From an uncultured Caldilineales bacterium (GTDB lineage: Bacteria > Chloroflexota > Anaerolineae > J102): 17,528 nucleotides of DNA. A model generated the notes under the pieces. That model did no database searches. It saw only the letters and a list, made by a program, of their open reading frames with translations, and was not told the origin of the DNA. The stretch spans positions 1 through 17,528 of the forward strand of contig CAZMDD010000069.1 in assembly GCA_964565065.1 (NCBI GenBank), written 5' to 3'. Shown in pieces: positions 671 to 17,528 of this stretch. Made by a program: the position numbers and the translations under genes. Numbering within the stretch: the stretch's first letter is position 1; each line of letters opens with the position of its first letter.

Positions 671-2425
671 TTAGATTTCGGGGGTTATCCAGGGGCGATA
701 ATCTTCGAGGATGGAGCCGCCCAAAAATTCACGCAGGATGGAATCGGAGGGAACGTGATCGGGGCTGGCAGGACGGAACCAGCGCAGTAGCGAAAGCAAA
801 CGCTTCGCTTCGATCCATTCTCGGGTTTCAGGGTCGATTTGGCGCAACAGGGGGAGCACCAGGGGTTGCAGCATGGCCAGTTCGTAGGGCAACGCCGAGT
901 TGAACATGATGTCGGCATTGTTCTGATAGGGGAAAATCCATTTACGTTCGCCTCGGCGCACACTTTCCCAGCGGGCAATGGTATCGGAGGCTGAATAGCC
1001 GCGGCTGCGGGCATCTCGCACAATGCGACGGATGAGGCGTACATCGGTGGTAGAGATACGGTTGTAGCGATCCAGGTTGAGCTGTGCCAAATCGCTGATG
1101 TAGATGCGGAAGCAGACATTGGCATCGACTTGGGGCAGCAAGTCGGGGTTCAGGGCATGAATGCCTTCGATGAGCAGCACATGCTTGGGGGTGATGCGAA
1201 TTTTGGACCCGGCGCCACGTTCGCCCGTGGTGAAATCGAATTTCGGTTGGATGATTTCTTGACCGGCAATCAGTGCGTTGATTTGCTTGTTGAGATAAGC
1301 AACATCGACCGCATGCAGCGATTCAAAATCATAGTCGCCATTTTCATCGCGTGGTGTGTGCGCCCGGTCGACAAAGTAGTTATCCACACTGATGGGCATG
1401 GGGCGCAATCCTACGGCCAGCAGGCGCACAGCCAGACGCCGGGCAAAGGTCGTTTTGCCCGAAGAGGAGGGCCCGGCAATCAAAATGACGCGCACCCGTT
1501 CTTTTTGTCGGGCAATGTCATCGGCAATTTCGCTGATGTGCTGTTCGTGCAGCGATTCAGAGACCAGGATAGCTTCGGTGAGCTGGCCCGACTCGATAAC
1601 TTCGTTCAGGCCCGCCACATTGCGGATGCCCAGCCGCCGCAGCCAGCGACTGTATTGGTTGAATATCTGAAAAAGTGGCGTTGGCGCGGTGTAGGGTTGG
1701 ATGGTGGTGGGGGTGTCTTGATGTGGAAAGCGCAGTAAAAAACCACCATCGGCAGGTTCGATGGCGAAATGGCGCAAATACCTGGTGTTGGGGGCCATGT
1801 AGCCATGAAAGTAATCTTTGGTCTCTAACAATTCGTAGACAATGAGATCTGGCTTGCGCCGTTGTTTGAGTAGCGCCAGTTTTTCTTCATCTCCGGCATC
1901 GGCAAAGATTTGGATGGCTTTTTCGATGGAAACCCGGCTGCGGCGGATGGGAAGTTGTGCGTCGACAACTTCTTGCATCTTTTGCTCAAGTTGAGCCAGC
2001 TCATCGGTGGTGAAGGGCTCGCGGCCAGCGATGCGGCAATAGTAGCCACCATTGACCACAGAATGCTCGACATAAACCCGGGCCTCGGGAAAAATTCGGT
2101 TGGCCACAGCAATCATCATAAAGGTGAGCGAGCGTCGATAGATACGGGCCCCATCGGCAGTGTTCAGTCGGATGCGGCGCACAGAAGCGTCATGTGTCAT
2201 GCGCCGCGAGAGTTCCGAGAGCTTGTTGCCGACAATGGCGGCAATGGCCTGCGGGCGTGGGTCATTTTGCGAGGCCGCCTGCACAAAGGCCTCTAGCGGT
2301 GTACCAACGGGCCCGGCCAATACCTGGCCCGATTCAAAGGTGAGTCGCACATCGTTGCGCGGTTCCGAAACATGAATGCTCATAGTTAGCTTCCGGGAAT
2401 TAGAGAGATTTGGACATGCAATCAT
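671..2425 (-). CDS. Fusion protein. The N-terminal half is ThrRS N-terminal-like: a TGS domain plus an N2 'editing-like' domain whose Zn-binding His/Cys positions are substituted. The C-terminal half is a uridine kinase / phosphoribulokinase-family P-loop kinase. An alternative start is at 2383 (MSIHV...).
   Basis: 584-aa ORF. Walker A 'GPSSSGKTT' matches the Udk/PRK type. The N-terminus reads 'VRLTFESGQVLAGPVGTPLEAF' (TGS-like). 'GGYYCRIA...FTTDELAQLEQKMQEVVDAQLPIRRSRVSIEKAIQIF' aligns to my recollection of E. coli ThrRS N2 (GFYYDVDL...LTQEDVEALEKRMHELAEK...). The positions that correspond to the ThrRS HxxxH and CxxxH zinc ligands are not conserved. Confidence 0.8.
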   Translation of the reverse strand: MIACPNLSNSRKLTMSIHVSEPRNDVRLTFESGQVLAGPVGTPLEAFVQAASQNDPRPQAIAAIVGNKLSELSRRMTHDASVRRIRLNTADGARIYRRSLTFMMIAVANRIFPEARVYVEHSVVNGGYYCRIAGREPFTTDELAQLEQKMQEVVDAQLPIRRSRVSIEKAIQIFADAGDEEKLALLKQRRKPDLIVYELLETKDYFHGYMAPNTRYLRHFAIEPADGGFLLRFPHQDTPTTIQPYTAPTPLFQIFNQYSRWLRRLGIRNVAGLNEVIESGQLTEAILVSESLHEQHISEIADDIARQKERVRVILIAGPSSSGKTTFARRLAVRLLAVGLRPMPISVDNYFVDRAHTPRDENGDYDFESLHAVDVAYLNKQINALIAGQEIIQPKFDFTTGERGAGSKIRITPKHVLLIEGIHALNPDLLPQVDANVCFRIYISDLAQLNLDRYNRISTTDVRLIRRIVRDARSRGYSASDTIARWESVRRGERKWIFPYQNNADIMFNSALPYELAMLQPLVLPLLRQIDPETREWIEAKRLLSLLRWFRPASPDHVPSDSILREFLGGSILEDYRPWITPEI

Positions 2426-2782
2426 ACGTCATCCTGGGCGGGAATGCAAACATGTATAAACCAGGGGTGTTTCGGATGTTTGCTCTCGCCTGCGCGTCAT
2501 GCGCCCGCGGGCAAGAAGATGCCGAATCGGGCACCATGGCCCATGTCGCGTTTGGCAACCACAACGCTCCAGCAGGTTTCGCCGTTTTTATGGGAAATCA
2601 TGGCCATAGTAAAATAGCGATGACATTTTTCTTCGGACAAAATGTTTTGACCAGTAGTGCAGTGGCGGTCTCTGCAACCTTTCACAATCATCAACTTATT
2701 TATGGTTGGTTATGCCCATGTTCGTCATAATGCGCACCTACTCAAGTACTGGCGGCTGGCAGAAATGAATTCGGTTCTAAAA

Positions 2783-2812
2783 TGTGCCATTGCAACCACA
2801 GATTTCTTATTG
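2783..2812. repeat. Fragment of intergenic repeat family 2 ('ttgcaaccacagatttcttattgg'). It overlaps the putative -35 region of the flotillin promoter.
   Basis: It shares 'GCAACCACAGAT(TTC)' with 5015-5040 and with 14864-14905. This is a direct reading of the sequence. Confidence 0.4.
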
Positions 2813-2839
2813 GCGAAAGTCAAGTGTTATAATTATAAT
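2804..2839 (+). promoter_or_regulatory. Putative sigma70-type promoter for the flotillin transcript. There are two overlapping candidates: an extended -10 'TGtTATAAT' at 2825-2833, or TTGGCG-N18-TATAAT at 2834-2839.
   Basis: Two perfect TATAAT hexamers sit at 2828-2833 and 2834-2839, with TG at 2825-2826 and a TTGGCG -35-like hexamer at 2810-2815. The predicted transcription start falls at about 2840-2847, which is the 5' end of repeat copy A. Confidence 0.35.
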
Positions 2840-2843
2840 TGGT

Positions 2844-2974
2844 AACGACTAACGTACCCGACTTCAATCACCGCAAAGACACTAAGAACACCAAGCATTT
2901 CAAAACTTTTTCTTTCTTTGTGCCTTTGTGGCTTCCTGTCTTAGTGGTTTCTAGCCGGGCTACCTTAGGAGTAA
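2844..2974 (+). repeat. Copy A of a 131-nt conserved intergenic element, a candidate structured RNA leader or MITE-like element. Its ends are imperfect terminal inverted repeats (AACGACTAACGTACCCG ... CGGGCTACCTTAGGAGTAA).
   Basis: It is about 94% identical (about 8 differences in 131 nt) to 9577-9707 in the same orientation. It lies 58 nt upstream of the flotillin start codon. The internal 11-bp hairpin arms CACUAAGAaCAC / GUGUCUUAGUG are conserved in both copies. Confidence 0.8.
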
Positions 2975-3032
2975 TGATTTTTTAAAGCTGTCTTAAAACA
3001 TGATTCGAGCCTGTCAGGCAGGAGGTGTGGTT

Positions 3033-4841
3033 ATGAATGTTGTAACATTAATTGTAGTGGTGGCTGCTGTTGTGGCTGTTTTGCTATTGCTATTTCGAGT
3101 TGGAACCAGGCTCATCGGCCTGGTGATTATCAGCGAAAATGAGGTGGGGGTTGTTATCCGCAAATTTGGCAAACCATTACCTCCGGGCAAATTGCTGGCG
3201 CTGAATAAAGAGGCTGGCTATCAGGCTGATACGCTGGCTCCGGGATGGCATTTTGGTTATTGGCTACCGCAGTTTAATGTAATAAAAGTACCTGTCACGG
3301 TGGTTCCACCCGGAGAGATTGCGCTGGTGGTGGCAGCGGATGGCGCATCGATTCCTGCTGAGCGCATTTTGGGCAAGGTGGTGGATTGCGATAATTTTCA
3401 GGATGCCCGCAAGTTTTTGACCAATGGCGGCGAAAAGGGACGCCAGTTGGGTATTCTCACCTCAGGAACGTATCGCATCAATACGGCACTGTTCAAAATC
3501 ATTTTGCGCCAAAATGCGGGCAGTATCGGCATGGACTCCGCTGAATTGCTGGTTTACACTGTTCATCCCGATAAAGTTGGCATTGTGACCACGCTGGACG
3601 GCAAGCCCATCGAAGAGGGTGAGATTGCCGGGCCTCCCATTTCGGGTCACGATAATTTTCAGAACGCGCAGGCTTTTTTGGAAAATGGCGGTCGCCGCGG
3701 TTTGCAGGAGCAAGTGTTGCTTTCTGGGTCGTGGAATCTGAACCCCTGGTTCGTCCAGGTCGAGCAATTACCCATGACCGAGATTCCCATTGGCTATGTG
3801 GGGATTGTCATCTCTTATGTTGGTAAGCCTATGGAGGATGTTAGTGGCGCGTCGTTCAAGCATGGCAATCTGGTCGAGCCGGGCCATAAGGGCGTTTGGG
3901 TTGTGCCCCTGAATCCTGGCAAACACCCCATCAATAGCCGTGTGATGAAGATTGAGCTGGTTCCCACAACCAACATCGTGCTCAATTGGGCTGTGCGTAA
4001 CGAAGCACATCGCTACGATGCCAATCTGTCTCCCATTACGGTGCGCTCGGGCGATGGCTTTGCTTTTAATATGGATGTTGCCCAAATTATCCACATCGGC
4101 TCACAAGAGGCTTCTAAAGTTATTTCCCGGGTGGGGTCTGTGCAAAATTTGGTGGATCATGTTTTGCAGCCCATTGTGGGCAATTACTTCCGCAATGCTG
4201 CCCAGCAATACACAGCTTTGGACTTTTTGGGAAGACGGGGCGAGCGGCAGAAAGAGGCGGCCAGTTATGTCCGCAAGGCTTTGCATACGTATGATGTGGA
4301 AGCGATCGATACGCTTATTGGCGACATTGCGCTGCCGGCGCAGTTGCTGGAGACGCAGACGAATAGGAAAATTGCCGAAGAGGAGCGCAAAACTTATGAA
4401 ATGCAGAAGATGGCGCAAGAGCAGCGGCAACTTTTGGTACGCGAAACATCTCTGGCCGATATTCAACGGGAAATGGTAAAGGCTGAGCGGGGTGTGCAAA
4501 TTGCCAAACTACAGGCCGATGCGACCATCGAGCAGGCTAAGGGTGATGCCGAAGCCACCCGTTTGCAGGCCGAAGGTGAAGCAGCCGCAATTTTGGCCAC
4601 AGGCAAGGCTAAGGCTACTGCGTATCGGGTAGGGGCTGAGGCTTTGGGCGAGCAACATTATGTGGCTTTGCAATTGATGCAGGTGGTCGGTAAAAGTGGC
4701 GTTCGCATTGTGCCCGATGTGTCGGTGAGTGGTGCGAATCATGGTGGCCTGGTGGACAGTTTGCTGGGCGTGATGCTGCATAATCAGATAAAGGAGGGAG
4801 GGTTGCTGCCAGAAGAAGCTGAAAGAACGCTTGCCGAGTAG
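3033..4841 (+). CDS. Flotillin-family (SPFH/band 7, YqiK-like) membrane protein. It has an N-terminal TM anchor, an internally duplicated 'DNFQ..FL.NGG' segment and a C-terminal Glu/Ala-rich coiled coil.
   Basis: The ORF track gives 3000-4841. I prefer the ATG at 3033 (MNVVTLIVVV...) because GGAGG sits at 3021-3025, 7 nt upstream of it. The C-terminal 'ERKTYEMQKMAQEQRQLLV...AKLQADATIEQAKGDAEATRLQAEGEAAAILATGKAKA' is typical of flotillins. Confidence 0.85.
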   Translation: MNVVTLIVVVAAVVAVLLLLFRVGTRLIGLVIISENEVGVVIRKFGKPLPPGKLLALNKEAGYQADTLAPGWHFGYWLPQFNVIKVPVTVVPPGEIALVVAADGASIPAERILGKVVDCDNFQDARKFLTNGGEKGRQLGILTSGTYRINTALFKIILRQNAGSIGMDSAELLVYTVHPDKVGIVTTLDGKPIEEGEIAGPPISGHDNFQNAQAFLENGGRRGLQEQVLLSGSWNLNPWFVQVEQLPMTEIPIGYVGIVISYVGKPMEDVSGASFKHGNLVEPGHKGVWVVPLNPGKHPINSRVMKIELVPTTNIVLNWAVRNEAHRYDANLSPITVRSGDGFAFNMDVAQIIHIGSQEASKVISRVGSVQNLVDHVLQPIVGNYFRNAAQQYTALDFLGRRGERQKEAASYVRKALHTYDVEAIDTLIGDIALPAQLLETQTNRKIAEEERKTYEMQKMAQEQRQLLVRETSLADIQREMVKAERGVQIAKLQADATIEQAKGDAEATRLQAEGEAAAILATGKAKATAYRVGAEALGEQHYVALQLMQVVGKSGVRIVPDVSVSGANHGGLVDSLLGVMLHNQIKEGGLLPEEAERTLAE

Positions 4842-4850
4842 TGTCTAAAA

Positions 4851-4909
4851 CCAAACGTACGGCGTACCTTCATCTGCCAGGTGCGCCGTACGTTGGCTAA
4901 TGTTTTTTT
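4851..4909 (+). terminator. Rho-independent terminator of the flotillin gene.
   Basis: The stem CCAAACGTACGGCG (4851-4864) pairs with CGCCGTACGTTGG (4884-4896), giving about 13 bp with one bulge. A T7 run follows at 4903-4909, and the TAG stop is at 4839-4841. Confidence 0.6.
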
Positions 4910-4949
4910 GGGCTTTAGTCAAAGCGCTGCGTTGTTAAGTAGCTGCGCA

Positions 4950-5120
4950 TTTGAACCTTGAGAAAAGGGCCTGCGTATCTCGACCAACGGCGAAGCTAGC
5001 TTTGCCGCCACGGCAACCACAGATGGCACAGATTTCGCAGATTTTTCTTGATGCTTTTTCCCTTTTTCTTGGTGCCTTGGTGCCTTTGAGCTCTTGGTGG
5101 TGCACTCCGGGTAGTAACGC
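4950..5120. repeat. Intergenic repeat family 2, locus X. The 5' part (4950-5060) is about 70-76% identical to 14808-14920 in direct orientation. The 3' part (5062-5120) resembles the 3' half of the 131-nt element (GTGCCTTGGTG...CCGGGTA).
   Basis: I aligned the two loci by hand. They share 'tttgaaNcttgagaaaagNgcctg', 'ggcaacc' and 'tttcttgatgcttttt'. In addition, 5019-5047 'CCACAGATGGCACAGATTTCGCAGATTTTT' is the reverse complement of 14916-14945, with 14 nt matching exactly. Confidence 0.6.
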
Positions 5121-5183
5121 ATCGTCGCATTTTAGCTTTCATAGCGTCACCTACTTAAGAGATCTTCCGAAGTCTACTTAGCA

Positions 5184-6203
5184 TCAATTTTTAATAGCAA
5201 AGGGTAAAAAGATGGGGTTGAGTGACGAGAGGGTGATGGTGGCTGAGGCTTCATCGGTGAGGTCGCCAGTATCGCGAATGACGATGCGTATGGTTTTTGG
5301 GCCCAGGCCATCAAAAGTGCGCTGATACACGCTCGACGCATTTTTCCAACTGGTATCGCAATCACCGCTGTTATCCCAATCGTAGCAGACTTCCAGATAG
5401 CTGATGTCATCCAAAGCATCGGTGCTGGCAGTGGGATCCAGGGTGAAGAGGGTGGTAAAATCGCCCGTCGTTGGTGTGATGCTGAGCCGGGCTGTGGGCG
5501 GTGCGTTGGGTTGTTCCGGTGTGACATCCACCGAGCAGGTGACGCTATCGGAGAGCATGCCGCGGTCGCGCACTTCGAGCTCGACTTCTTGAATGCCATG
5601 TCTGTTAAATTGGTGTGTTTGGTCTTGCGTGGCACTTTGCCAATCTGTGTCATACCCACCGCCGCTGTACCAGGCCCAACGAGCAGAAAGGTCGGCGGTG
5701 CTGTCTTGGGCATCGGTGCTGGTGGCGGCGCTAAAGGTGAAGGTCGTGCCAACCGGGCCCGAGGCGGGCGTTACGACGCAACGAGGAACGGGCGCTGTGT
5801 TAGAGCCAGGATCGCCTACCACGATGTCGTGGGTCACAGAATCGGTGGCGTCGTCATTGTCTTTTACCAACATGCGCACGGTGTAGGTTCCCGGGGTGTC
5901 GTAGCGGTGTCGAAGCGAAGGATTGGCGGGGTTGAGCCAGCTTGTATCATAAACACCATCATTCTCCCAATCATAACGAATCTGCAACCATTCCAGAGAG
6001 TCTTCGTTGTCGTGCGTGCTCGAAGGATCAAAGTAGTACCAAGTTCCTACTACGCCGCCGCTGGGTGGATCGATGGTGAAGGCTGCCACGGGCGGGGTGT
6101 TGGCGGGATGCAGGGGGGTGTTGCCGGCCACAACGGGCACGCTCAGAAAAATGAGCATCATCAGTAACGTCCATGCCAGACGCGTTGCCGATATGTGAAA
6201 CAT
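5184..6203 (-). CDS. Secreted protein with three tandem PKD domains and a signal peptide.
   Basis: Three repeats end in PKD-type motifs (YDWENDGVYDTSW, WAWYSGGGYDTDW and YDWDNSGDCDTSW). The ORF track starts it at 6221. On the minus strand GGAGG lies 10 nt upstream of the internal ATG at 6203 (MFHISATRLAWTLLMMLIFLSVPVVAG). That start gives a clean signal peptide. Confidence 0.8.
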   Translation of the reverse strand: MFHISATRLAWTLLMMLIFLSVPVVAGNTPLHPANTPPVAAFTIDPPSGGVVGTWYYFDPSSTHDNEDSLEWLQIRYDWENDGVYDTSWLNPANPSLRHRYDTPGTYTVRMLVKDNDDATDSVTHDIVVGDPGSNTAPVPRCVVTPASGPVGTTFTFSAATSTDAQDSTADLSARWAWYSGGGYDTDWQSATQDQTHQFNRHGIQEVELEVRDRGMLSDSVTCSVDVTPEQPNAPPTARLSITPTTGDFTTLFTLDPTASTDALDDISYLEVCYDWDNSGDCDTSWKNASSVYQRTFDGLGPKTIRIVIRDTGDLTDEASATITLSSLNPIFLPFAIKN

Positions 6204-6428
6204 TTTTGCAGCTACCTCCATATCATGGGAATGTAAAGATCTTACCTAATGTGCAACTTTTTATGACACATCAACGAGCTTATCAAGCATCTTCTGCTTA
6301 ACAAGCCGACGAAAATGGACGAAAGGACAAACGTGGAGGAAATAAAATCGTCCACATTCGTCTAATTGGGTCCATCTTCGTCATGGAAAAATGACAAGCT
6401 CGCAATTTGGAATTAGGAAACTTATTGC

Positions 6429-6445
6429 AAACGACTTAGTCGTTA
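6429..6445. repeat. A 'solo-termini' palindrome AACGACTtAGTCGTTAC. It equals the 5' end plus the 3' end of the 131-nt element with the internal roughly 115 nt absent.
   Basis: Observed sequence: aacgacttagtcgttac. Joining the copy B termini (aacgact | tagtcgtaac) predicts aacgacttagtcgtaac, which differs at one position. Confidence 0.45.
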
Positions 6446-6825
6446 CAAATTATCCACCACTACACACAACTTGAGTAAATTGTAAATGATTGTTGACAAA
6501 AAGATGAAATTTTATCTGTCGTTTTGTTGAACAGAATGGCTAGTTGTACAAAAAAAGCTTCATGGCAGTATGCTCAGTGTTGGTGTGAACCTCTGCATCC
6601 TTTCACCCCCGCCCGTCGAAAAACGTACCCAGGCGGGTCTGTGACTCGGCGGGTTGCCCATCCGCTCATGCACGTTCGCTCGCAGGGGCGAGAGCTTGAT
6701 GCACACACCCTGCCAACAAAGAACGCCGCCAAACCGATACAGGTACTTTCGGAAAGTGTAAAGAGTACGTTAAAATAGAGCTGATCGACACAAGTAGTTG
6801 ACCAACACGCCTTAGGAGCTTTAAC

Positions 6826-8817
6826 ATGACAACTTTGCCCGCGCATTACGATAAAATTGATCAAACACTGGCCAATACCTTACGCCTGCTGGCAGTGGAT
6901 GCTGTTCAGGAAGCAAACTCGGGGCATCCCGGCCTGCCCTTGGGGGTTGCCGACTTTGTAAGCGTGTTGTGGACGCGCTTTCTCAAACATGATCCCGCAC
7001 AGCCTGAGTGGCCCGATCGTGACCGCTTTGTGCTTTCTGCCGGACATGGCTCTGCTCTGCTGTATTCGCTGCTGCATCTTTTCGGCTATCCCTTGCCACT
7101 GGATGAACTTAAGCGCTTTCGGCAATTGGGCGCCATCACCGCCGGCCACCCCGAATATGACCCGGCTCTGGGCATCGAGCTGACCACCGGGCCCCTGGGC
7201 CAGGGCATTAGCAGCGCGGTGGGTATGGCTCTGGCCGAACGCTGGCTGGCTCAGCGCTTTAATCGCCCCGGATTCACACTGGTTGATCACACCACCTGGG
7301 TGCTGGCCTCGGATGGCGATCTTATGGAAGGCGTTTCATCTGAAGCAGCCTCGCTGGCCGGACACTGGGGCCTGGGTAAACTTATCGTGCTGTATGATGA
7401 CAATCATATCTCCATCGATGGCAACACTCAGGTTAGCTTTACCGAAGATGTCTTGCAGCGTTTTTCATCCTATGGCTGGCACATCAGCCGTGTGGATGGT
7501 CACGACATGGCTGCAGTCGATGCCGCCATTCGCACAGCTCAGGCCGAAACACAACGTCCCAGCATCATCGCCTGCCGCACGCAAATCGGTTTTGGCAGCC
7601 CCATGGTCAACACCGCCAAAGTTCACGGTTCACCCTTGGGCCCGGCGGGCGTGCGGGCCACCAAAGAGGCATTGGGCTTTCCTGCCGATGAAAAATTCTA
7701 CGTGCCCGCGGCTGTGCGCCCGCGCATTGCCCAGGCCTTACGCCCGGGCGCCCAGGCACGCGCCCACTGGCAGGCGCAGCTACAAGCCTACCGCCAGGCC
7801 CATCCCCAACTGGCCGCCCAGTGGGATGAGCAAATCAGCGGCAAATTACCTGCAGGTTGGCAAAACTCCCTGCCCGACTTCAGCAACCAAAAACCGATGG
7901 CGACCCGGGCCACCTCGGGCCAAGTCATCGCAGCACTAACCCCGATATTGCCCACCCTGGTGGGAGGTTCAGCCGATCTTTCCGGCAGCAACAAAACCAA
8001 TCCCCCCAACCAGCAAACCATCAACCGCCAAAACTACCACGGCAACTACATCCACTACGGCGTGCGCGAACATGCCATGGGCGCCATCATGAATGGTCTG
8101 GCCGTACACAACCTGCGTCCCTTTGGCGGCACATTCTTAGTCTTCTCCGATTACCTGCGCGGCGCCATTCGTCTGGCCGCTCTGATGAAACTGCCAGTCA
8201 TCTACATCTTCACCCACGACAGCATCGGCGTCGGTGAAGATGGCCCCACCCATCAACCCATCGAGCATGTTACCTCGCTGCGACTCATTCCCGGTCTGGT
8301 TACCCTGCGTCCAGCCGATGGTAACGAAACCGCCAAAGCCTGGCAAGTGGCCCTGGAACGGCAAGGCCCCACCGCTTTAATTCTTACCCGGCAAGCCTTG
8401 CCGCAAATGACCGCAAAAAACAACGGCCTGCACCGCGGCGCCTACATCTTGCAGGATAGTGCAACCTCTCGCCCCGACATCGTGCTGATTGCCAGCGGCT
8501 CTGAAGTCGCTCTGGCCATGGAAGCCGCCCAAACCTTGCAGGCGCAAAACATTCAGGCACGGGTTGTCTCTATGCCCAGTTGGGAGCTATTCGATGCTCA
8601 GGAAGCAGCCTATCGGGCCCAGGTGCTGCCCGCAGATGTGCCTAAACTGGCCATCGAAGCTGGCGCCGGCCTGGGCTGGCGTCGCTACGTGGGGCTGGAT
8701 GGAGCAGTACTCAGCATCGATAGCTTTGGCGCTTCGGGCCCGGGCTCCGCAGTCTTCGCAAAATTTGGTTTCACCGTCGAAAACATTATCGCCATGGTCA
8801 GACAACTACTGGCCTGA
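6826..8817 (+). CDS. tkt: Transketolase
   Basis: The 663-aa product starts with a canonical transketolase N-terminus and TPP-binding region (…ANSGHPG.P.G…SAGHGS..LYSLLHL.GY…GPLGQG…), and its length is typical of the family. AGGAG sits 8 nt upstream of the ATG. Confidence 0.95.
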
Positions 8818-8837
8818 CCCACACATCCCAAAACACT

Positions 8838-9509
8838 ATGACCGCAAAACTTTCCCCCTCCATCCTTTCCGCCGACTTCACCCGCCTGGGGCAACAAGTG
8901 CGCGACGCTGCCGCCGCGGGTGCCGAATACATCCACATCGATGTGATGGATGGGCAATTTGTGCCCAACATCACCATCGGGCCTGTCATCGTCAAGGCCC
9001 TGCGTCCCATCGCCGATGAAACGGGCGTCATCCTGGATGTGCATCTGATGATTGAGCAACCTGAAAACATGCTGGCAGCCTTTGCCCGGGCCGGCGCAGA
9101 CATACTCACCGTACACATCGAAACCTGTCCCCACATCCACCAAACCATTCAGCAAATCAAAGCTCTGGGCATGAAAGCGGGCGTCACCCTGAACCCGGGA
9201 ACCCCGCTGGTCATGCTGGAAAACATCCTGGCCGACGTTGACCAGATTTTAATCATGTCGGTGAATCCGGGCTTTAGCGGACAACGCTACATTGCCGCCA
9301 GCACCGACAAAATTGCACGCTTACGAGCCATGCTCAACACCCGCGGTCTGCAACATGTCGCCATCGAGGTCGATGGTGGTGTCAAGCCGGAAAACGCCGC
9401 TGAAATTGTGGCTGCCGGTGCCAACATCCTGGTGGCAGGCTCCGCAATCTACAACCAAAAAGCCAGCATTGCCGAAAACATCGCCGCCTTCCGGCAAGCG
9501 TTATCGTAA
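8838..9509 (+). CDS. rpe: Ribulose-phosphate 3-epimerase
   Basis: The 223-aa product has the signature N-terminus 'SPSILSADFTRLG...HIDVMDGQFVPNITIGP' and 'DVHLM...NPGFSGQ'. It lies immediately downstream of tkt, so the two are probably co-transcribed. Confidence 0.95.
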   Translation: MTAKLSPSILSADFTRLGQQVRDAAAAGAEYIHIDVMDGQFVPNITIGPVIVKALRPIADETGVILDVHLMIEQPENMLAAFARAGADILTVHIETCPHIHQTIQQIKALGMKAGVTLNPGTPLVMLENILADVDQILIMSVNPGFSGQRYIAASTDKIARLRAMLNTRGLQHVAIEVDGGVKPENAAEIVAAGANILVAGSAIYNQKASIAENIAAFRQALS

Positions 9510-9576
9510 CCTGCAAGAGTTGATCCAATCACCAAACCATCCGATACAGCAGAGAGCTGTTACATCAGGCAAAAAT

Positions 9577-9707
9577 AACGACTACCGTACCCGACTTCAG
9601 TCACCACAAAGACACTAAGAACACCAAGCATTTCAAAATTTTTTCTTTCTTTGTGCCTTGGTGGCTTCGTGTCTTAGTGGTTTCTAGCCGGGCTACCTTA
9701 GTCGTAA
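9577..9707 (+). repeat. Copy B of the 131-nt conserved intergenic element. It sits 68 nt after the rpe stop and 136 nt before the lipoprotein gene start.
   Basis: It is about 94% identical to 2844-2974. The terminal stem is better in this copy (ACGACTA..CGTA.CCCG pairing with CGGG.TAC..TAGTCGT). The internal P2 arms are identical to copy A. An apical 'CACCAAG/CTTGGTG' pairing is perfect here and has one mismatch in copy A. Confidence 0.8.
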
Positions 9708-9726
9708 CCATTATTCATGCAATGTT

Positions 9727-9761
9727 ACACAATTGCCTCTTGAAATGTCTCATGATTGTGT
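9727..9761. promoter_or_regulatory. Inverted repeat ACACAAT-N21-ATTGTGT flanking a TTGAAA -35-like hexamer upstream of the lipoprotein gene. It is a candidate operator or promoter region.
   Basis: The dyad arms are at 9727-9733 and 9755-9761, and TTGAAA is at 9740-9745. I found no convincing -10 hexamer. Confidence 0.25.
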
Positions 9762-9843
9762 CATCATAAAGATGCACATGGGAACTTGTTTCGCAGTGCC
9801 GACGTTAACATGATAACACCCCCCTTCCCATCAGGAGAAAACC

Positions 9844-10782
9844 ATGAGACGCATCCACCTTATTATCATCCTCTTGCTATTGGTCACGCTGGCACTAACA
9901 GCTTGCAGCGGGTCAGCTCCGACGCCTATGGTGGTCGAAAAATCTGTTGGACAGGCTGTTTCTGCCGATAATGACATGCTCGCCCCCCGTGAAGCGCCCG
10001 CCGCCCCTATGGCATCATCAGCCCTTGCGCCTGCCAGTCAGCAGATGCAAAGCACCCGCAAAATCATCTACAACGCAGATATTGCGCTCATCGTGCAGGA
10101 TACCGAGCAAACAACGCAAGCCATTGCCGAGATGGCCGCCAGCATGGGGGGCTACGTGGCCAGCATGAATGGCTATCATCAGGGCGAGCAGATGATTTAC
10201 GACATCACCATCCGCATCCCCTCCGATAAATTCGAGGCCGGGCGCAGCTCATTGCGGCAAATGGCGGTGCGGGTCGAGCATGAAAATGTTAGCACCAACG
10301 ATGTCACCGATCAGTACTTTGACATCGACGCCCGCCTGCGCACCCTGACCGCTACTGAAGAAGAACTCACCGAGTTGCTCAAAGAAACCCGCAAAAATGG
10401 CGGCAAGGTCGAGGATGTGATGAAAGTTTATGACCGCCTGATTCAAATCCGTAGCGACATTGAATCCTTGCAGGGGCAATTGAATCGTTTGGATAAACTG
10501 GTAGGCTTCTCTACGCTGAACATTCATCTGCAACCGCACATCCTGTCCACCGCCATCGAAAATGATGATTGGCATCCGGCAGAGATTGTTCACGCCAGCA
10601 TCAACACCTTGGTCAATGCCCTCACCGGTCTGGCCACACTGCTCATCCGCCTGGTCATCGTGGTCTTGCCCATTGCCCTGATTTTAATTCTACCGCTGGT
10701 ACTGCTGGTGTGGCTGGTGAGCAAATGGCGCCAACGGGCCCGAACTGTCAAAAACGACGAAACCTCCCAGGATGACTCATAG
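9844..10782 (+). CDS. Lipoprotein, DUF4349-like. It has a lipoprotein signal peptide ending in Cys, a central coiled-coil region and a C-terminal hydrophobic anchor.
   Basis: The N-terminus reads 'MRRIHLIIILLLLVTLALTAC|SG' (lipobox). The C-terminus reads 'LLIRLVIVVLPIALILILPLVLLVWLV' (TM). AGGAG sits 8 nt upstream of the start. The DUF4349 name comes from my memory of that family's architecture and is not verified. Confidence 0.8.
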   Translation: MRRIHLIIILLLLVTLALTACSGSAPTPMVVEKSVGQAVSADNDMLAPREAPAAPMASSALAPASQQMQSTRKIIYNADIALIVQDTEQTTQAIAEMAASMGGYVASMNGYHQGEQMIYDITIRIPSDKFEAGRSSLRQMAVRVEHENVSTNDVTDQYFDIDARLRTLTATEEELTELLKETRKNGGKVEDVMKVYDRLIQIRSDIESLQGQLNRLDKLVGFSTLNIHLQPHILSTAIENDDWHPAEIVHASINTLVNALTGLATLLIRLVIVVLPIALILILPLVLLVWLVSKWRQRARTVKNDETSQDDS

Positions 10783-11266: not shown

Positions 11267-13735
11267 CTACGAAGTTGGGCGCTCCTGTTGCGCCCGTTCA
11301 GCCATCAACTCATGATAGGCCTTCACCCATTTGGCCATCTCTTCATCTCGCCGCTTGCTCTGCTGCATAGCGGCGTTGATTTTTTGCTTTTCGATACGGG
11401 AAAAAATATCGGCGTGAACCGTTTTGGGGTCGGGCACAAAATAAAATTCGATATTGCCTTTGGTGGCGGCAGTCTGAATAGAGACATTGCCGTAATTAAA
11501 AATATAGGCGATAAAATGAGGAATCTGAAATTCCACATTTTCTACACGTTCCAACGATAACTTAATGCGATCTTCCTGCAAGCCCAGCGGCTTCTTGTTC
11601 ACCTGCTCGATGAAGTGATCCGTTACGATGTAGAAATCGTTGCGCCAATCCACCCATTGCCAGACCAGCCACAAAATACCGCCAATCAAAAGGGGAAAGG
11701 CCAGCAGCAGCGCACCATTGCGGATTTGTGTGGCATAAGGTGTATTCCGGGAAATGTCACGAATCACAAAAAATAAAACAATGGCCCCAATAGCCAATCC
11801 CAGAGGCAAGAATGATTTTACCAGAAGTCCAAACCAATGCTTTCGCCAAATAAGTCGCTCACCCAACCGCGGCTTGCTGCTGGAAAAACTTTTAAGGAAT
11901 GCTCGCAACCAACCCAACACTTTATTATAGGTTGGTGCGCTCCCAGCCGTGCGCACCTCAACATCCTCCATCAGCGCCCGCACATCAGTGACCAAATCGG
12001 TCTCCATATCTAGTTCTTTGCGTAAGTAGCGTTTGATGTAATCCTCAGGTTCCTCCATCTGGGCGTGCAGCAGCTTTATCCGTTCGGTGGCGCCAGATAA
12101 AATTTTGATAATTTCATCTGGGTGTGCCAAGTAATCGAACTTTATCTCACCTTCTTCTGCGGCGGTGCTGATGTAAAGCTGTCCGTACCCCAGCATTTTG
12201 GCAAAAAATCCACGCTCCATGTGCGAATTCTGAATTTTGTCGATGGGCGCGGCATTCTGACGTTCACTCATCAGGGGCACAGCTTCTTCGTGCATGATTC
12301 GGGTATGGGTGATGGTGAAATAATCATTCCTATAATCAGCAATCGCCCATCCTCCCATTATTAAAAGCCACAGCAACACCGGCAAAAACTTCAGCCAAAA
12401 CGAGAAATGAATCCCCAGCAACGAAAGAGAAATCAAAATGGCCAGATAAAGTAACGCTACCAGCACCGGAATCAATAAGCGTTTAACCAGAACAATGGGG
12501 TGTCGCCGTTTGCGGAAGAGGGGGCCTTCCTCTGGCTGCAGGGCTGTGCTGGCAACCGCATCTACGCTGGCCAGCATGTGCAGTTTGGCTTCCTTACGTC
12601 GCCATATTTCGGGGTGAGCATTAGAAAATGCCTGAAAATCGAGATAATGGATTTGCAGCCAGCTTACCGGCGTTGTCGCCTCTACCGTGATTTCAGCCAG
12701 TTGATTTTGCTGCATGATGTTTTTCTCGCCCCAGGTAAATCCTGGCATCACCGGTTCCGGCTCTTCGGGCACACCGATGCTGTTGTAGGTATATTTTCGC
12801 GCTTCGCCCCTGGTCAAAATGCGATAGTGAGGATCGGGCTGCTGACTACGGGAGATTTTTGTGCCAGGTCGATGTGCGTAAACCTGCATGACATAGCCTG
12901 CCAGGTACCGAATCTCAGGGCGGGTAAGCATCTTGAAAAATGGCGCCCGACTCAGCATCAGCTCAATGTCGATGGGCTCACGCGTCCACACATTTTGCGG
13001 ATGTCGTTCTGTTAGCGCCACAAAATCAACCTTGGGCACTCGATAACAAGAGACCTTTGTCTCGGCGACAATGCGGCATTTGTAGTAGCCCCCCGTAAAT
13101 ACAACGCGAAGTCCCAGCACGCTATTGCTGCTGCGCCACCACTCCCGCTGAAATAAATTCGATTGCAAGTGTACACGTCCCTGTCGGACAATCATCACAT
13201 CTTTGACTGGGGCGTTCTCCTCAGCCAGCACCCTTCCTCGGGGAATATCCTCGAATTTTACCAAATCGCTCAGCCAGTCGATTTCGGGATTGGTCAAAGG
13301 TGCGAAATAAGGAATCGCCCGCAAACGTCCGGCCACGCGGGCCCGGTCGAATTTGCGGCCCCAGGCAGGATAATGAGATGCCAGTGTTACCAACGACTTG
13401 ACATCGATGCTGATGAGCTCCACCTCGCGGGCAGCCCGGGCGTCGCCCAACTGCGGCGCATGAATATCCAAACGCAGCCGACCCAGCACTTCGCCCTCAT
13501 TCACCACTCGCCACAGCTCCCGCTGCCCCTCATCCCGCCGCAAAAGCGTTACCTGCCCCCGTTTCACCAAAAAGAGACGCCGAATCACCGCGTCCTGCCG
13601 AAACAGCAGCACGCCCGGTTTGATGGGTTGCGATGTTGGCACTGCGCGAATCCGCTTCAGCGCTTCATCAGGAATCCCCTGGAAGAGCTCGAACTCACGC
13701 AAGGCTGCGACAACATCAAAAGTGGAATCAGGCAT
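11267..13735 (-). CDS. Membrane signalling protein of unknown output. It has three N-terminal cNMP-binding-like (CAP effector) domains followed by two TM-anchored bacterial PH (bPH_2, YdbS/YdbT-like) modules.
   Basis: The 822-aa product has cNMP-like cores 'GEVLGRL...DARAAREVELISI', a second weaker one, and 'GFTWGEKNIMQQNQLAEITVEATTPVSWLQI'. Two hydrophobic hairpins are each followed by a roughly 100-aa segment like YdbT ('...YISTAAEEGEIKFDYLAHPDEI...' and '...VSIQTAATKGNIEFYFVPDPKTV...'). Confidence 0.8.
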   Translation of the reverse strand: MPDSTFDVVAALREFELFQGIPDEALKRIRAVPTSQPIKPGVLLFRQDAVIRRLFLVKRGQVTLLRRDEGQRELWRVVNEGEVLGRLRLDIHAPQLGDARAAREVELISIDVKSLVTLASHYPAWGRKFDRARVAGRLRAIPYFAPLTNPEIDWLSDLVKFEDIPRGRVLAEENAPVKDVMIVRQGRVHLQSNLFQREWWRSSNSVLGLRVVFTGGYYKCRIVAETKVSCYRVPKVDFVALTERHPQNVWTREPIDIELMLSRAPFFKMLTRPEIRYLAGYVMQVYAHRPGTKISRSQQPDPHYRILTRGEARKYTYNSIGVPEEPEPVMPGFTWGEKNIMQQNQLAEITVEATTPVSWLQIHYLDFQAFSNAHPEIWRRKEAKLHMLASVDAVASTALQPEEGPLFRKRRHPIVLVKRLLIPVLVALLYLAILISLSLLGIHFSFWLKFLPVLLWLLIMGGWAIADYRNDYFTITHTRIMHEEAVPLMSERQNAAPIDKIQNSHMERGFFAKMLGYGQLYISTAAEEGEIKFDYLAHPDEIIKILSGATERIKLLHAQMEEPEDYIKRYLRKELDMETDLVTDVRALMEDVEVRTAGSAPTYNKVLGWLRAFLKSFSSSKPRLGERLIWRKHWFGLLVKSFLPLGLAIGAIVLFFVIRDISRNTPYATQIRNGALLLAFPLLIGGILWLVWQWVDWRNDFYIVTDHFIEQVNKKPLGLQEDRIKLSLERVENVEFQIPHFIAYIFNYGNVSIQTAATKGNIEFYFVPDPKTVHADIFSRIEKQKINAAMQQSKRRDEEMAKWVKAYHELMAERAQQERPTS

Positions 13736-14132
13736 AATTTCGGGAAACCAGCAATAAACAACGGCTCAATACAATCATCATACCTATTTTAACACGTTAT
13801 GGCAACCTTGCCCCCCTGGCGGACACATCAACTTGAGAGGATTGCCAGTCTCGCCAAGCCGAAAATGGCTTGCGCCATAGGGTTGCGGAGGACAAGAAGA
13901 TATTTTGCGGGAATGCCGCGGGGAAGTTGGTGATTCTCTCTGGATAGTGATGAACTGTTGCATTTCAAATTCTGACGGGGGCCCGCTGCTTCCGATTTTA
14001 CAAATCTCGAGTTTAGAATAAAACTTTGATAACACTTTAATGAGATGATAAAGGGGAGGCCGCTATGGCCTTCATTGGAATCACGCTGTGGTTGATTCTG
14101 TCACAACACTCCCAGTAGTTACGAGGTGAACT

Positions 14133-14789
14133 ATGAAGAAGCGAACCAAACTTGTTACCGGTGCGGTGCTTGCACTGCTGGCTCTGGTCATTGTGCCCAT
14201 GGCTGTTTTTGCGCAACAGGGCCCGAAACCGCGACCGAACCATGAACATGCCCTGATGCGCGCCCTGACTGAAACCGCGGCCCAAACCCTGGGCATGACC
14301 CCGCAGGAATTTGTACAGGCCATGCGTCAGGGTAAGACCCCGGCACAACTGGCCGAAGAAGCGCAAGTAAACCCCGATGATCTGGCCGCAGCCATGCAAA
14401 ACACCTGGAATACCCAGGGCGAGCAGCTCATTGCCACATTTATCGAGCAGGGTGCGCCAGCCAAGGTCGGGCAACGCGAGGCTGAGCGTCGGCAGCGGGC
14501 GCTGCGACGTTGGACCAGGCTGGCAGCAGAGACATTAGACATGTCACCGCGAGTCTTTGTTCAGGAGCTACGTTCGGGCCAAAGTGCCGCCCAAATTGCT
14601 GAAGCACACGGTAGCTCGGGCCAGGCTTTGGTCGATGCCGTGGTAGCAGCGGAACAAGCGCATCTTGATCAGGCTGTGGCCGATGGCAAGATGACCCAGG
14701 AGGAAGCGGATAACCTTTTGCCCAAAATCATCGAGCAAGCCAACAAATGGGTGGTGCGAGTGCCGCCCACCAATCCGCCTGGAAACTGA
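14133..14789 (+). CDS. Secreted protein with a signal peptide and two tandem copies of a roughly 45-70 aa alpha-helical repeat.
   Basis: The N-terminus reads 'MKKRTKLVTGAVLALLALVIVPMAVFA'. The repeat 'LTETAAQTLGMTPQEFVQAMRQGKTPAQLAEEAQ' corresponds to 'LAAETLDMSPRVFVQELRSGQSAAQIAEAHG'. GAGGTG sits 5 nt upstream of the ATG. Confidence 0.75.
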   Translation: MKKRTKLVTGAVLALLALVIVPMAVFAQQGPKPRPNHEHALMRALTETAAQTLGMTPQEFVQAMRQGKTPAQLAEEAQVNPDDLAAAMQNTWNTQGEQLIATFIEQGAPAKVGQREAERRQRALRRWTRLAAETLDMSPRVFVQELRSGQSAAQIAEAHGSSGQALVDAVVAAEQAHLDQAVADGKMTQEEADNLLPKIIEQANKWVVRVPPTNPPGN

Positions 14790-14807
14790 TGCAACATGGC
14801 ACTGACG

Positions 14808-15040
14808 TTTGAAACTTGAGAAAAGTGCCTGTGCATTTTGGCAAACGGTGAAAAATAGCTTCGTCGCCATGGCAACCGAAAAGTGCATAGCTTGCACAAA
14901 TTTCTCTTGATGCTTTTCTGCGAAATCTGTGAAGACCTGTGGCTAAACCAAGCAACCACTGGGCTTCACGGATTTTGCAGATTTTTTTGACGGCTTTCTG
15001 CATTTTTCTGTGAAAATCTGTGCCATTTCTACCTTAGCTT
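14808..15040. repeat. Intergenic repeat family 2, locus Y. It contains a direct copy of the X 5' part plus inverted copies of the 'CACAGATTTCGCAG' module, and it ends with 'CTACCTTAG', which is also present in the 131-nt element.
   Basis: Hand alignment gives about 70-76% identity to 4950-5060. Internal near-repeats are 'ttctgcgaaatctgtgaaga' (14916-14935) and 'ttctgtgaaaatctgtgcca' (15005-15024). An inverted repeat CACAAATTTC ... GAAATCTGTG lies within it. Confidence 0.6.
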
Positions 15041-15166
15041 TTTGGGGCGGTCATTCTGGCGAACACCGAAACATCTATCGGGAAAATTGGACTTCTGCAC
15101 TGTTTGCGGTTAACATTAGCAATTATTTTTTGTCTCTCACTAAAAATCAAAAGGAAGGAGAAGATT

Positions 15167-16297
15167 ATGTCTCGTAAAATTTATCCAGTTATCCTACTGC
15201 TCTTGTTGTTGAGTTTGGTGCTGGCTGCCTGCACAACACCCACTGCTAAAGAAGCTGCCCCGGCAAAAGAGGAACCCACTGCCCAACCAGCAGCGCCCGA
15301 GCCCACGGCTGAACCTGCTCAGGAATCCCCCAAAGCTGACACCCTGCTCCCCCCCATGGACCCGCCCGAGAAGGTCAAGGTGGCCTATGTGCCCATCATG
15401 AAGTTTGCCACCATGTACGTAGCTGCCGACCGGGGCCTGTTTGAAAAATATGGTTTGGATGTAGAAATCGAACGGGTAAAATCGGGCACCGAGGCCATTG
15501 CCTTCCTTACCAATAATTCGGTGGATGTGGGCGGCATTGCCATCGTCACTTCGCTGTGGAATGGCTGGAGCGAAGGATTGCCCCTGCGCATCATCGCCCC
15601 CGGTGCGCTGGAGCCTTACGAAAATAGCCCCACCAAGGTCGTGGCCCGCAAAGAACTGGTAGATAGCGGCAAGGTCAAAACCATGGCTGACCTGAAAGGC
15701 CTGAAGGTGGCGCTGGCTGGCGGCCCCGGCAGCGGCGGCGAATACCTGCTCTCCAAAGCCCTGGAGCGGGGCAATCTCACCATCCGTGATGTAGAAACGG
15801 TGAAGATGGGCAACGCCGATATGCCCGCGGCCTTTGAAAATGGCTCCATCGATGCCGCATTGCTGGGCTCTCCCTATGCCGACCAAGTCATCGATGCCGG
15901 ACATGGTGTAGCCATTGCCACCGATTTAACCCCGGGCCTGATGACAGTGGCCTTTGTGGGCTCCGAAAACTTTGTCACCAATCGCAAAGATGTGGCGCAG
16001 CGCTTTGTGTTGGCCCTGACCGAGGCTTCCCGCATGATGCAGGGTGATGATTACCTTTCTGATGAAAACATTGCTGCATATCTCAAATATGTCAACTCCA
16101 CCGAAGAGGCCATTCGCAAAGGCCGCCGCGTGGTTTATGACCCAAATATGAAAATTCCGGTAGAGGGGCTGGCCGATGTAGAGCGCACCCATCGCGAAAA
16201 TGGCCGCACCGAATACACCGACCCCATCGACCTCCATTCGGTGGTGGATAGCTCCTTTGTCGAGAAGGCCCTGGAGCTTTTGGGCGGGGCACAATAA
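15167..16297 (+). CDS. ABC transporter substrate-binding lipoprotein of the NitT/TauT (NMT1/SsuA/TauA-like) family.
   Basis: The N-terminus reads 'MSRKIYPVILLLLLLSLVLAAC' (lipobox), followed by a Pro/Ala/Glu-rich linker. GGAGG sits at 15154-15158, upstream of the ATG at 15167 (the ORF track starts at 15104). The gene is adjacent to the ATPase and permease genes of the same transporter class. Confidence 0.9.
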   Translation: MSRKIYPVILLLLLLSLVLAACTTPTAKEAAPAKEEPTAQPAAPEPTAEPAQESPKADTLLPPMDPPEKVKVAYVPIMKFATMYVAADRGLFEKYGLDVEIERVKSGTEAIAFLTNNSVDVGGIAIVTSLWNGWSEGLPLRIIAPGALEPYENSPTKVVARKELVDSGKVKTMADLKGLKVALAGGPGSGGEYLLSKALERGNLTIRDVETVKMGNADMPAAFENGSIDAALLGSPYADQVIDAGHGVAIATDLTPGLMTVAFVGSENFVTNRKDVAQRFVLALTEASRMMQGDDYLSDENIAAYLKYVNSTEEAIRKGRRVVYDPNMKIPVEGLADVERTHRENGRTEYTDPIDLHSVVDSSFVEKALELLGGAQ

Positions 16298-16310
16298 GCT
16301 ATCGTATGAT

Positions 16311-16348
16311 GAGCGCAGCAGGAGATAGTTCTTGCTGCGCTCTTTTTT
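16311..16348 (+). terminator. Intra-operon Rho-independent terminator or attenuator between the substrate-binding-protein gene and the ATPase gene.
   Basis: GAGCGCAGCAGG (16311-16322) pairs with CTTGCTGCGCTC (16331-16342) as a 12-bp stem with one G·U. The loop is 8 nt and a T6 run follows at 16343-16348. Confidence 0.65.
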
Positions 16349-16363
16349 CGATACAAGGATCCC

Positions 16364-17146
16364 ATGACCACCAAAATCACCGCCAACGCTGTCAACAAAA
16401 GCTACGATACCCCGCGCGGCGAACTTGTAGCGCTGCAAAACTTCAATCTTGACGTGCAGGAAGGGGAATTCGTGTGCATCGTGGGGCCTTCTGGTTGCGG
16501 CAAATCAACCTTTTTGCGCATTCTGGCGGGGCTGGAGGCGCAAAGCTCGGGCCAGATAACCATCGTGCCGGGCAAAGAGCCGGGCAAACCCCTGAACAAT
16601 GTAGTCTTTCAGGACTACGCCATCTTCCCCTGGAAAACGGTCATCGACAATGTGGCCTTTGGTCTGGAGATGCGGGGCATCCCCAAAAAGGAGCGTTTGG
16701 CTGTTGCCAGACGTTGGCTGGAACGGGTGGGGCTGGGGCGTTTTGCCCAGTACTATCCCCACCAGATCTCGGGCGGGATGAAACAGCGGGTGAGCATCGC
16801 CCGCGCCCTGGCCAATGATCCCGAGGTGCTGCTGATGGATGAGCCGCTGGGCGCGCTGGATGCCCAGACTCGGGCCGTGCTGCAAGAGGAACTGCTGCGC
16901 ATCTGGGAAGAAACCCGCAAAACAGTGGTTTACATCACCCACAGCATCGATGAAGCAGTGCTTTTGGGCGATAAAGTGGTACTGATGACCGCTCATCCCG
17001 GAACCAACAAAGCCACCTTCGAGGTGGCGATTCCCCGACCCCGCACCCTGGCGGTGCAAAGCTCACGCGCATTTCGGGAGCTAACACTGGCCATTTGGGA
17101 ATCATTGAAGGATGAGGTGATGCGGGCCATGGAGGCGCAACGATGA
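16364..17146 (+). CDS. ABC transporter ATP-binding protein (NitT/TauT family, SsuB/TauB-like).
   Basis: Walker A 'GPSGCGKST', ABC signature '[15 protein letters not shown]', Walker B '[11 protein letters not shown]' and an H-loop 'ITHS' are all present. Confidence 0.95.
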
Positions 17147-17528
17147 AACATTGGCAAGAGGTGCAGAAGAAGGTGTGGTTGCTATTGGCGGGCCTGGCGC
17201 TCTTCAATGGCATCATGCTGGCGGCGCATCTTTGGCGGCCCTACTTGTGGCTGGGGCTGCTGGTGGATATGGCATTGTTGGTGGCCCTGGCCGATTTCGT
17301 AGCCCGAGCCATCCCCAAACGCTGGCAGCGGGCTTATGATTTGACGCTGGCCATCGGTTTTCCCATCTTGCTCCTGGTGGCGTGGGAGCTGATTGTGCGG
17401 GCCGAGATTCTGAATCCGCGCTGGTTTCCGCCCCCTTCGCGCATCGCTGCAGCGTTGTGGCAACTTTCCACCCAGGTGGATAAATTTTCGCATACCAGTT
17501 TGTGGGGACGCCCCTGGCTTATCCCTCG
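17143..17528 (+). CDS. ABC transporter permease (NitT/TauT family). The N-terminal 128 codons are present and the gene runs off the window end.
   Basis: The ATG at 17143 overlaps the TGA of the ATPase gene (ATGA), which indicates translational coupling. Hydrophobic helices and a 'RWFPPPSRIAAALWQL' segment are typical of SsuC/TauC-type permeases. The gene is absent from the ORF track because no stop codon occurs within the window. Confidence 0.85.
   Translation, partial: MKHWQEVQKKVWLLLAGLALFNGIMLAAHLWRPYLWLGLLVDMALLVALADFVARAIPKRWQRAYDLTLAIGFPILLLVAWELIVRAEILNPRWFPPPSRIAAALWQLSTQVDKFSHTSLWGRPWLIP

Follow-up and report, generated by a model that had tools for sequence, protein, structure and literature searches.

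The 134-nt non-coding element that occurs twice in the window, i.e. the whole 17,528-nt stretch of DNA analysed here, is very probably a miniature inverted-repeat transposable element (MITE). The first-pass annotation had left three readings side by side, a cis-regulatory RNA leader, a small-RNA gene and a MITE-like mobile element. The last of these is strongly supported, because the copies are dispersed, carry terminal inverted repeats, are flanked by 8-bp duplications and are nested within one another, and because a filled and an empty site of the same insertion were found. The two RNA readings are not supported, since neither an Rfam match, nor covariation, nor an orientation bias, nor conservation in orthologues was observed. 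The element is a high-copy dispersed repeat of the Caldilineales/Anaerolineae (Chloroflexota).

The two copies, located at 2844-2974 and 9577-9707 by the first-pass annotation, lie on the plus strand and are 93.9% identical over 131 nt. Their flanks are unrelated, as had been proposed, and the likeness breaks off sharply at each end. The window contains exactly two occurrences of a 28-nt core, which was absent from 200 shuffles. When we aligned the copies with the whole family, the left end was shifted outward by 2 nt and the right end by 1 nt, giving 134 nt for each copy, at 2842-2975 (copy A) and 9575-9708 (copy B). Copy A, a member of a short length class, is positioned on the plus strand between a promoter-like site and a flotillin-like (Band_7) gene, with a gap of 57 nt to the ATG at 3033. 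Copy B, also on the plus strand, starts 66 nt past the stop codon of the ribulose-phosphate 3-epimerase gene (rpe) and ends 135 nt before the ATG of a DUF4349 gene at 9844. Both distances agree with those given before.

The element is formed by two arms and a central loop. The long imperfect terminal stem that had been noticed is real, and its inverted repeats, estimated before at about 17 nt, extend to about 25-30 nt at the family ends. These imperfect repeats start with GTAAC; 113 of 127 copies start with GTA, and 117 of 127 end in GTAAC (GTTAC on the reverse complement). When aligned with each other, the consensus ends GTAACGACTAACGTA-CCCGACTTCAATCACC and GTTACGACTAAGGTAGCCCGGCTAGAAACCAC agree at 24 of 31 positions. 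In copy A, the left terminal inverted repeat comprises positions 2842-2868 on the plus strand (GTAACGACTAACGTACCCGACTTCAAT), and the right one comprises 2948-2975 on the same strand (TTTCTAGCCGGGCTACCTTAGGAGTAAT; the family consensus ends with ...CCTTAGTCGTAAC). Inside the repeats, an array of four 8-nt units of the type CACNAAGN forms the left arm (2869-2900, plus), and four complementary 8-nt units of the type CTTNGTGN form the right arm (2916-2947, plus). The two arrays are separated by a T/C-rich loop at 2901-2915 on the plus strand (CAAAACTTTTTCTTT), which serves as a target of nested insertions in other copies. Folding also bears out the inner hairpin. The number of 8-nt units varies among the members, giving length classes of 126, 134, 142/143, 150 and 158 nt. 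Overall, family lengths range from 116 to 159 nt, and the members are non-coding and too short to encode a transposase. At least three subfamilies of unequal age are present, with mean differences from their own consensus of 2.8 for the 143-nt class, 5.0 for the 142-nt class and 10.8 for the 134-nt class.

A BLAST search of approximately 1.03 Mb of related loci returned 134 full-length and 89 partial matches, and 127 distinct copies with usable flanks were obtained from the full-length ones. When a 20-nt core from the left half of the element was used, more than 116 metagenome stretches were matched. Among the left-core matches listed, a single metagenome, Ga0256914, accounts for most, and its population shares 99.75% identity with the window. 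The corresponding 20-nt core from the right half matched five loci, from two MAGs titled "uncultured Caldilineales bacterium" and "Anaerolineae bacterium". Besides the seeded matches, approximately 98 additional places were found per Mb, which suggests a genome copy number in the hundreds, although the copy numbers are derived from metagenome contigs in which strains may be mixed.

The flanks of the copies carry the signature of transposition. Perfect 8-bp target-site duplications flank 75 of the 127 copies, compared with 0.6 when the flanks were randomly re-paired; with at most one mismatch allowed, the numbers are 97 of 127 and approximately 1.7, respectively. The duplicated target sites have an A+T content of 69%, compared with 51% for non-ORF DNA and 45% overall. 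One insertion can be followed directly. The contig Ga0256914_1016408 (L061) is 99.75% identical to window positions 13919-17528 and contains one extra copy of the element, flanked on both sides by the duplicated sequence CTCTGGAT. At the corresponding place the window is uninterrupted and has a single CTCTGGAT (13938-13945, plus strand). These two contigs are a filled and an empty site inside one species-level population. Furthermore, some copies are inserted within the loop of another copy with an 8-bp duplication of their own (L084, L038 and L110). Assemblies also break inside the element, and two short Logan contigs end within it, a sign of an assembly-breaking repeat.

The two window copies themselves are probably old, fixed insertions that are no longer mobile. 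Both belong to the 134-nt class, which is the oldest length class. Copies A and B occupy the identical two sites in every spanning contig and are present in all four strain-level contigs, and genes identical to those of the window are found on contigs of the MAG GCA_054029655.1 and in JGI, ENA and Logan assemblies. Copy A has no recognisable 8-bp duplication in its flanks (TATAATTG / GATTTTTT), and neither has copy B (AGGCAAAA / CATTATTC). In addition, each of them has one mutated terminal base. The right end of copy A reads ATTAC where GTTAC (reverse complement) is expected, by a change of the terminal G to A at position 2975, and the left end of copy B reads ATAAC where GTAAC is expected, by the same change at position 9575. 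Since the duplications are not recognisable and a terminal base is mutated in each copy, both are probably immobile. That the window copies are insertions we infer from their family membership and from the absence of the element upstream of flotillin orthologues. We also asked whether recombination between A and B had removed the duplications; just five of eight bases are common to the left flank of A and the right flank of B, which shows nothing.

We then compared the positions of the copies with those of genes. ORFs of at least 100 aa were avoided by 101 of 124 copies (p = 4e-59), although 84% of the sequence of the loci falls within crude ORF calls. Of the remaining 23, most overlap the edges of ORFs whose start was called too far upstream, or of small ORFs that are doubtful. 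All intergenic contexts are represented, namely upstream of genes, downstream of genes, between divergent pairs and between convergent pairs. Relative to the start of the downstream gene, 49 copies have the same orientation and 45 the opposite one (p = 0.76), and relative to the end of the upstream gene the numbers are 45 and 34 (p = 0.26). The first-pass annotation had tied the element to the leader regions of envelope-protein genes, a tie that turned out to be coincidental, as other copies, including truncated ones, adjoin unrelated metabolism and transport genes. The positions ahead of the flotillin-like and DUF4349 genes are best explained as tolerated insertion places with no common regulatory role.

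The genes around the two copies form, from 671 to 9509, a pentose-phosphate or Calvin-type neighbourhood that is interrupted by the flotillin-like gene and PKD-domain genes. It includes a protein of 584 aa that has a domain of the phosphoribulokinase/uridine-kinase family (671-2425, minus strand) and, close to it, a transketolase (6826-8817, plus) and the ribulose-phosphate 3-epimerase (8838-9509, plus). The N-terminal part of the flotillin-like gene contains a 42-nt direct repeat (3389-3430 and 3650-3691) with 74% identity, 261 nt apart, which suggests that a domain ahead of Band_7 has been duplicated within the gene. Elsewhere in the window, an 822-aa protein (11267-13735, minus) shows an unusual architecture with two cyclic-nucleotide-binding stretches and a bacterial PH (bPH_2) domain.

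With respect to promoters, the extended -10 motif that had been pointed out upstream of copy A is present as TGnTATAAT (TGTTATAAT at 2825-2833). A promoter-like site, TTGGCG-18-TATAAT, with 10 of 12 consensus matches, spans 2810-2839 on the plus strand and belongs to the flank, outside the element. Two promoter consensus matches were found, compared with 0.8 expected in shuffles. Since 2 nt separate the promoter-like site from copy A, this copy would probably be transcribed within the flotillin 5' UTR as a hairpin, if the predicted promoter is active. For copy B, the sole promoter-like match is downstream of the element at 9740-9767 and none was found upstream, so that copy B is more likely placed in the 3' region of rpe or upstream of a putative DUF4349 promoter. 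In place of the tandem ATAATT-ATAATT at 2830-2841, which overlaps the TATAAT hexamers, the JGI strain contig has one ATAATT (L001, 3986-4005), a small polymorphism within the putative promoter upstream of copy A.

We weighed the MITE reading against other explanations. According to one of them, the element would be a cis-regulatory RNA leader, similar to a riboswitch or an attenuator, which controls the flotillin-like and DUF4349 genes via three stems (P1, P2 and P3). This would fit the orientation of the two window copies, both on the sense strand with a gene downstream, and the start of copy A 2 nt past the promoter-like site, and the plus strand of the copy indeed folds better than shuffled sequences, into one long imperfect hairpin with an MFE of -35.8 kcal/mol (z = -3.1). 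However, the opposite strand folds even better (MFE -41.9 kcal/mol, z = -3.8), which fits a DNA palindrome and not a strand-specific RNA. An Rfam scan of the window returned nothing at gathering thresholds, and relaxing the cut-off to E <= 5 added only two miRNA matches, both outside the element and put down to chance. When we ran RNAalifold on 124 copies, six pairs were kept, without compensatory change and with a covariation term of -0.02. Imposing the MFE structure of copy A did not uphold the three stems either, since the covariation score of 0.026 equals the shuffled mean and one compensatory cell was found where 2.0 were expected. With the same structure imposed, 97% of the cells pair, owing to the close relatedness of the copies. 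The closest flotillin orthologues (76-82% amino acid identity, L127-L132) show no trace of the element upstream, and their gene neighbourhood is unlike that of the window, so that only the upstream absence can be read from them. Moreover, copy B has no promoter-like site upstream, and across the family the orientation is random (49:45) and numerous copies are placed past the end of a gene or within a convergent gene pair. Taken as a whole, the leader reading is very improbable. Multi-copy small RNAs exist in bacteria, and a compact, conserved and structured non-coding unit such as this one could also be taken for an independently transcribed small-RNA gene. We consider there to be next to no chance of this, since the element contains no promoter-like or terminator-like signal, its orientation is random, the number of its 8-nt units varies freely, and its conservation ends exactly at the inverted-repeat ends with their 8-bp duplications, which delimit a transposition unit and not a transcription unit.

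Two further alternatives accept that the element spreads. REP/BIME-like host palindromes, which would owe their spread to a RAYT (HUH) transposase or to recombination and would not be mobilised as a DDE-type MITE, are likewise high-copy, intergenic and imperfectly palindromic. REPs are 20-40 nt long, are without such terminal inverted repeats, generate no target-site duplication and are linked to a RAYT gene, whereas the present element has 134 nt and a fixed 8-bp duplication at most copies, and one insertion with an exact duplication was observed (L061); this origin is therefore extremely unlikely. The other alternative is compatible with the MITE reading and concerns copy A after its insertion, which may have been exapted as a 5'-UTR hairpin that modulates the stability or translation of the flotillin mRNA. 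An effect of this 5'-UTR type on mRNA stability or translation has been reported for exapted Correia elements of Neisseria. The promoter-like site at 2810-2839 that ends 2 nt before copy A, the fixation of copy A across all four strain-level contigs, its probable immobility with a mutated end and no duplication, and its stable hairpin of -35.8 kcal/mol would agree with such a role. On the other side, the pairing shows no sign of selection, the promoter is only a consensus match (two found, compared with 0.8 in shuffles), and copy A stops 57 nt before the start codon, leaving the ribosome-binding site uncovered. We therefore regard this exaptation as unlikely, although fixed copies such as copy A may possibly be recruited as 5'-UTR hairpins. 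Under the MITE reading, any influence of copy A on flotillin expression would be a side effect.

As for the mechanism of a MITE of this kind, the 134-nt element would be derived by deletion from a DDE-type insertion sequence, or would mimic one. It would be moved by a transposase that is encoded at another place and recognises the inverted repeats at its ends, GTAACGACTAACGTACCCGAC... and the imperfect complement of this sequence, which are about 25-30 nt long. Insertion would proceed through 8-bp staggered cuts at A/T-rich, mostly intergenic targets and would thus create the 8-bp duplication. The interior is a near-palindrome of 8-nt units, the number of which would be altered by slippage or recombination.

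The GTAA ends and the 8-bp duplication fit the ISBst12 group of the IS66 family, an assignment made solely from the end sequence and the duplication length. Terminal repeats of the IS66 family begin with GTAAGCG, and its members make 8-bp duplications (PMC11946415). ISDge4 of Deinococcus geothermalis, which belongs to the single-ORF ISBst12 group, is bounded by GTGACTACTCAGCA / GTAACTGCTCAGCA and has an 8-bp duplication (PMC12898284). For the rule of GTAA ends and 8-bp duplication, we took as reference the IS66-like element on the plasmid pHTA426 of Geobacillus kaustophilus (L133, approximately 14040-15740, minus strand), which surrounds a transposase gene annotated in RefSeq as 'IS66-like element ISGka4 family'. 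This element has the ends GTAACTATTCAGCCCGTAC and GTATCTATTCAGCCCAGTAC, reads GTAACTATTCAGCCC... and is flanked by the intact 8-bp duplication AACTCGTC. A published table lists an ISBst12-group copy on pHTA426, which may or may not be the one annotated as ISGka4 family. The common MITE variant has the end GTAACTACTAACG, and its first 11 nt, GTAACTACTAA, are comparable with GTAACTATTCA of the pHTA426 element and with the ISDge4 ends GTGACTACTCAGCA / GTAACTGCTCAGCA. Thus, the MITE and the IS66/ISBst12 elements share GTAA/GTAAC ends and the 8-bp duplication, but the MITE has no transposase gene and the likeness is confined to approximately the first 9-11 nt of the ends.

A search for an autonomous partner in the approximately 1 Mb of loci found no two inverted repeats that are spaced 400-6000 bp apart and flanked by a duplication. 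When pairs up to 6 kb apart were examined as candidate autonomous elements regardless of duplication, only nested or composite MITEs of 217-327 nt were obtained. No transposase was detected beside isolated MITE ends, where a Pfam scan of 10 adjoining ORFs returned housekeeping families only (e.g. GNAT, HisA/F, TRAP transporter, aminotransferase and FBPase). A tblastn search of all loci (approximately 1 Mb) with the IS66-like transposase of pHTA426 gave a best E value of 0.37. Repeated ORFs among the loci, which we tried as a proxy for a transposase, were only overlapping strain contigs. Scanning of viral contigs with the left end gave 0 matches.

A second dispersed, hairpin-like and MITE-like repeat is present in the window at 4935-5158 (plus strand), where it is intergenic and about 200-225 nt long. 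There is also a partial copy at 14808-14917 and a right-end remnant at approximately 13938-13990, and the sampled loci contain about 50 full or partial places of this repeat. It ends with TTAAGTAG...CTACTTAA (TTAAGTAGCTGCGCATTTGAAAC... / ...TTTCATAGCGTCACCTACTTAA), is flanked by TA or TTAA, and has CACAGATKG units in the left part of its interior and CTTNGTGN units in the right part. The two families are alike in being dispersed, hairpin-like and intergenic and in carrying CTTNGTGN units in the right arm, whereas the second repeat differs from the 134-nt MITE in its ends, its greater length (about 200-225 nt) and its left-arm units. Arrays of CTTNGTGN units occur in both families, in the window at 2916-2947, 5057-5100 and 9649-9680, and in the loci L099, L102, L108 and L072. 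The 134-nt MITE is often found inside the second repeat. Copies that seem to be hybrids of both families resemble products of a deletion from one unit array to the other. MITE fragments joined to another right end were examined as a possible larger element and proved to be insertions into, or deletions against, the second family.

The shared 8-nt module is the one feature that standard MITE biology does not explain. It is conceivable, at a low probability in our estimate, that the arrays of CACNAAGN and its complement CTTNGTGN are a functional module and not filler, swapped between unrelated non-autonomous elements. Such arrays could be binding sites for a protein of the host or the transposon, or could form a hairpin needed for transposition. 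If this module exchange is true, these MITEs of Chloroflexota would be chimeras assembled from modules, a type of element that has not been described so far.

Several bacterial MITEs are known, including Correia in Neisseria, RUP in Streptococcus pneumoniae, ERIC/IRU in enterobacteria and Nezha in cyanobacteria. Like these, the present element is approximately 100-150 nt long and non-coding, has terminal inverted repeats and target-site duplications, and occurs in dozens to hundreds of intergenic copies with subfamilies and nested insertions. The known bacterial MITEs also give rise to a hairpin-forming transcript and are frequently co-transcribed with neighbouring genes. The duplication of Correia and RUP is TA, whereas that of the present element is 8 bp long. 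It further differs from the named families in its GTAAC ends, its variable 8-nt units and its Chloroflexota (Caldilineales/Anaerolineae) host. A full-text literature search returned no paper that deals with MITEs in Chloroflexi by title or abstract. This high-copy, recently active family with IS66/ISBst12-like ends appears to be undescribed in Chloroflexota.

The value of the finding lies in annotation, strain typing and transposon biology, and it adds no new regulatory mechanism. Recognition of the family keeps a conserved, well-folding intergenic element from being logged as a riboswitch or a small RNA. The element supplies presence/absence markers at the strain level, and it breaks the short-read assemblies of these MAGs. 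Variation in expression is likely wherever the element lands between a promoter and its gene, as copy A may have done. Finally, the ends of the MITE (GTAAC[GT]ACTAACGTACCCGAC) provide an exact search key for the transposase in Caldilineales genomes.
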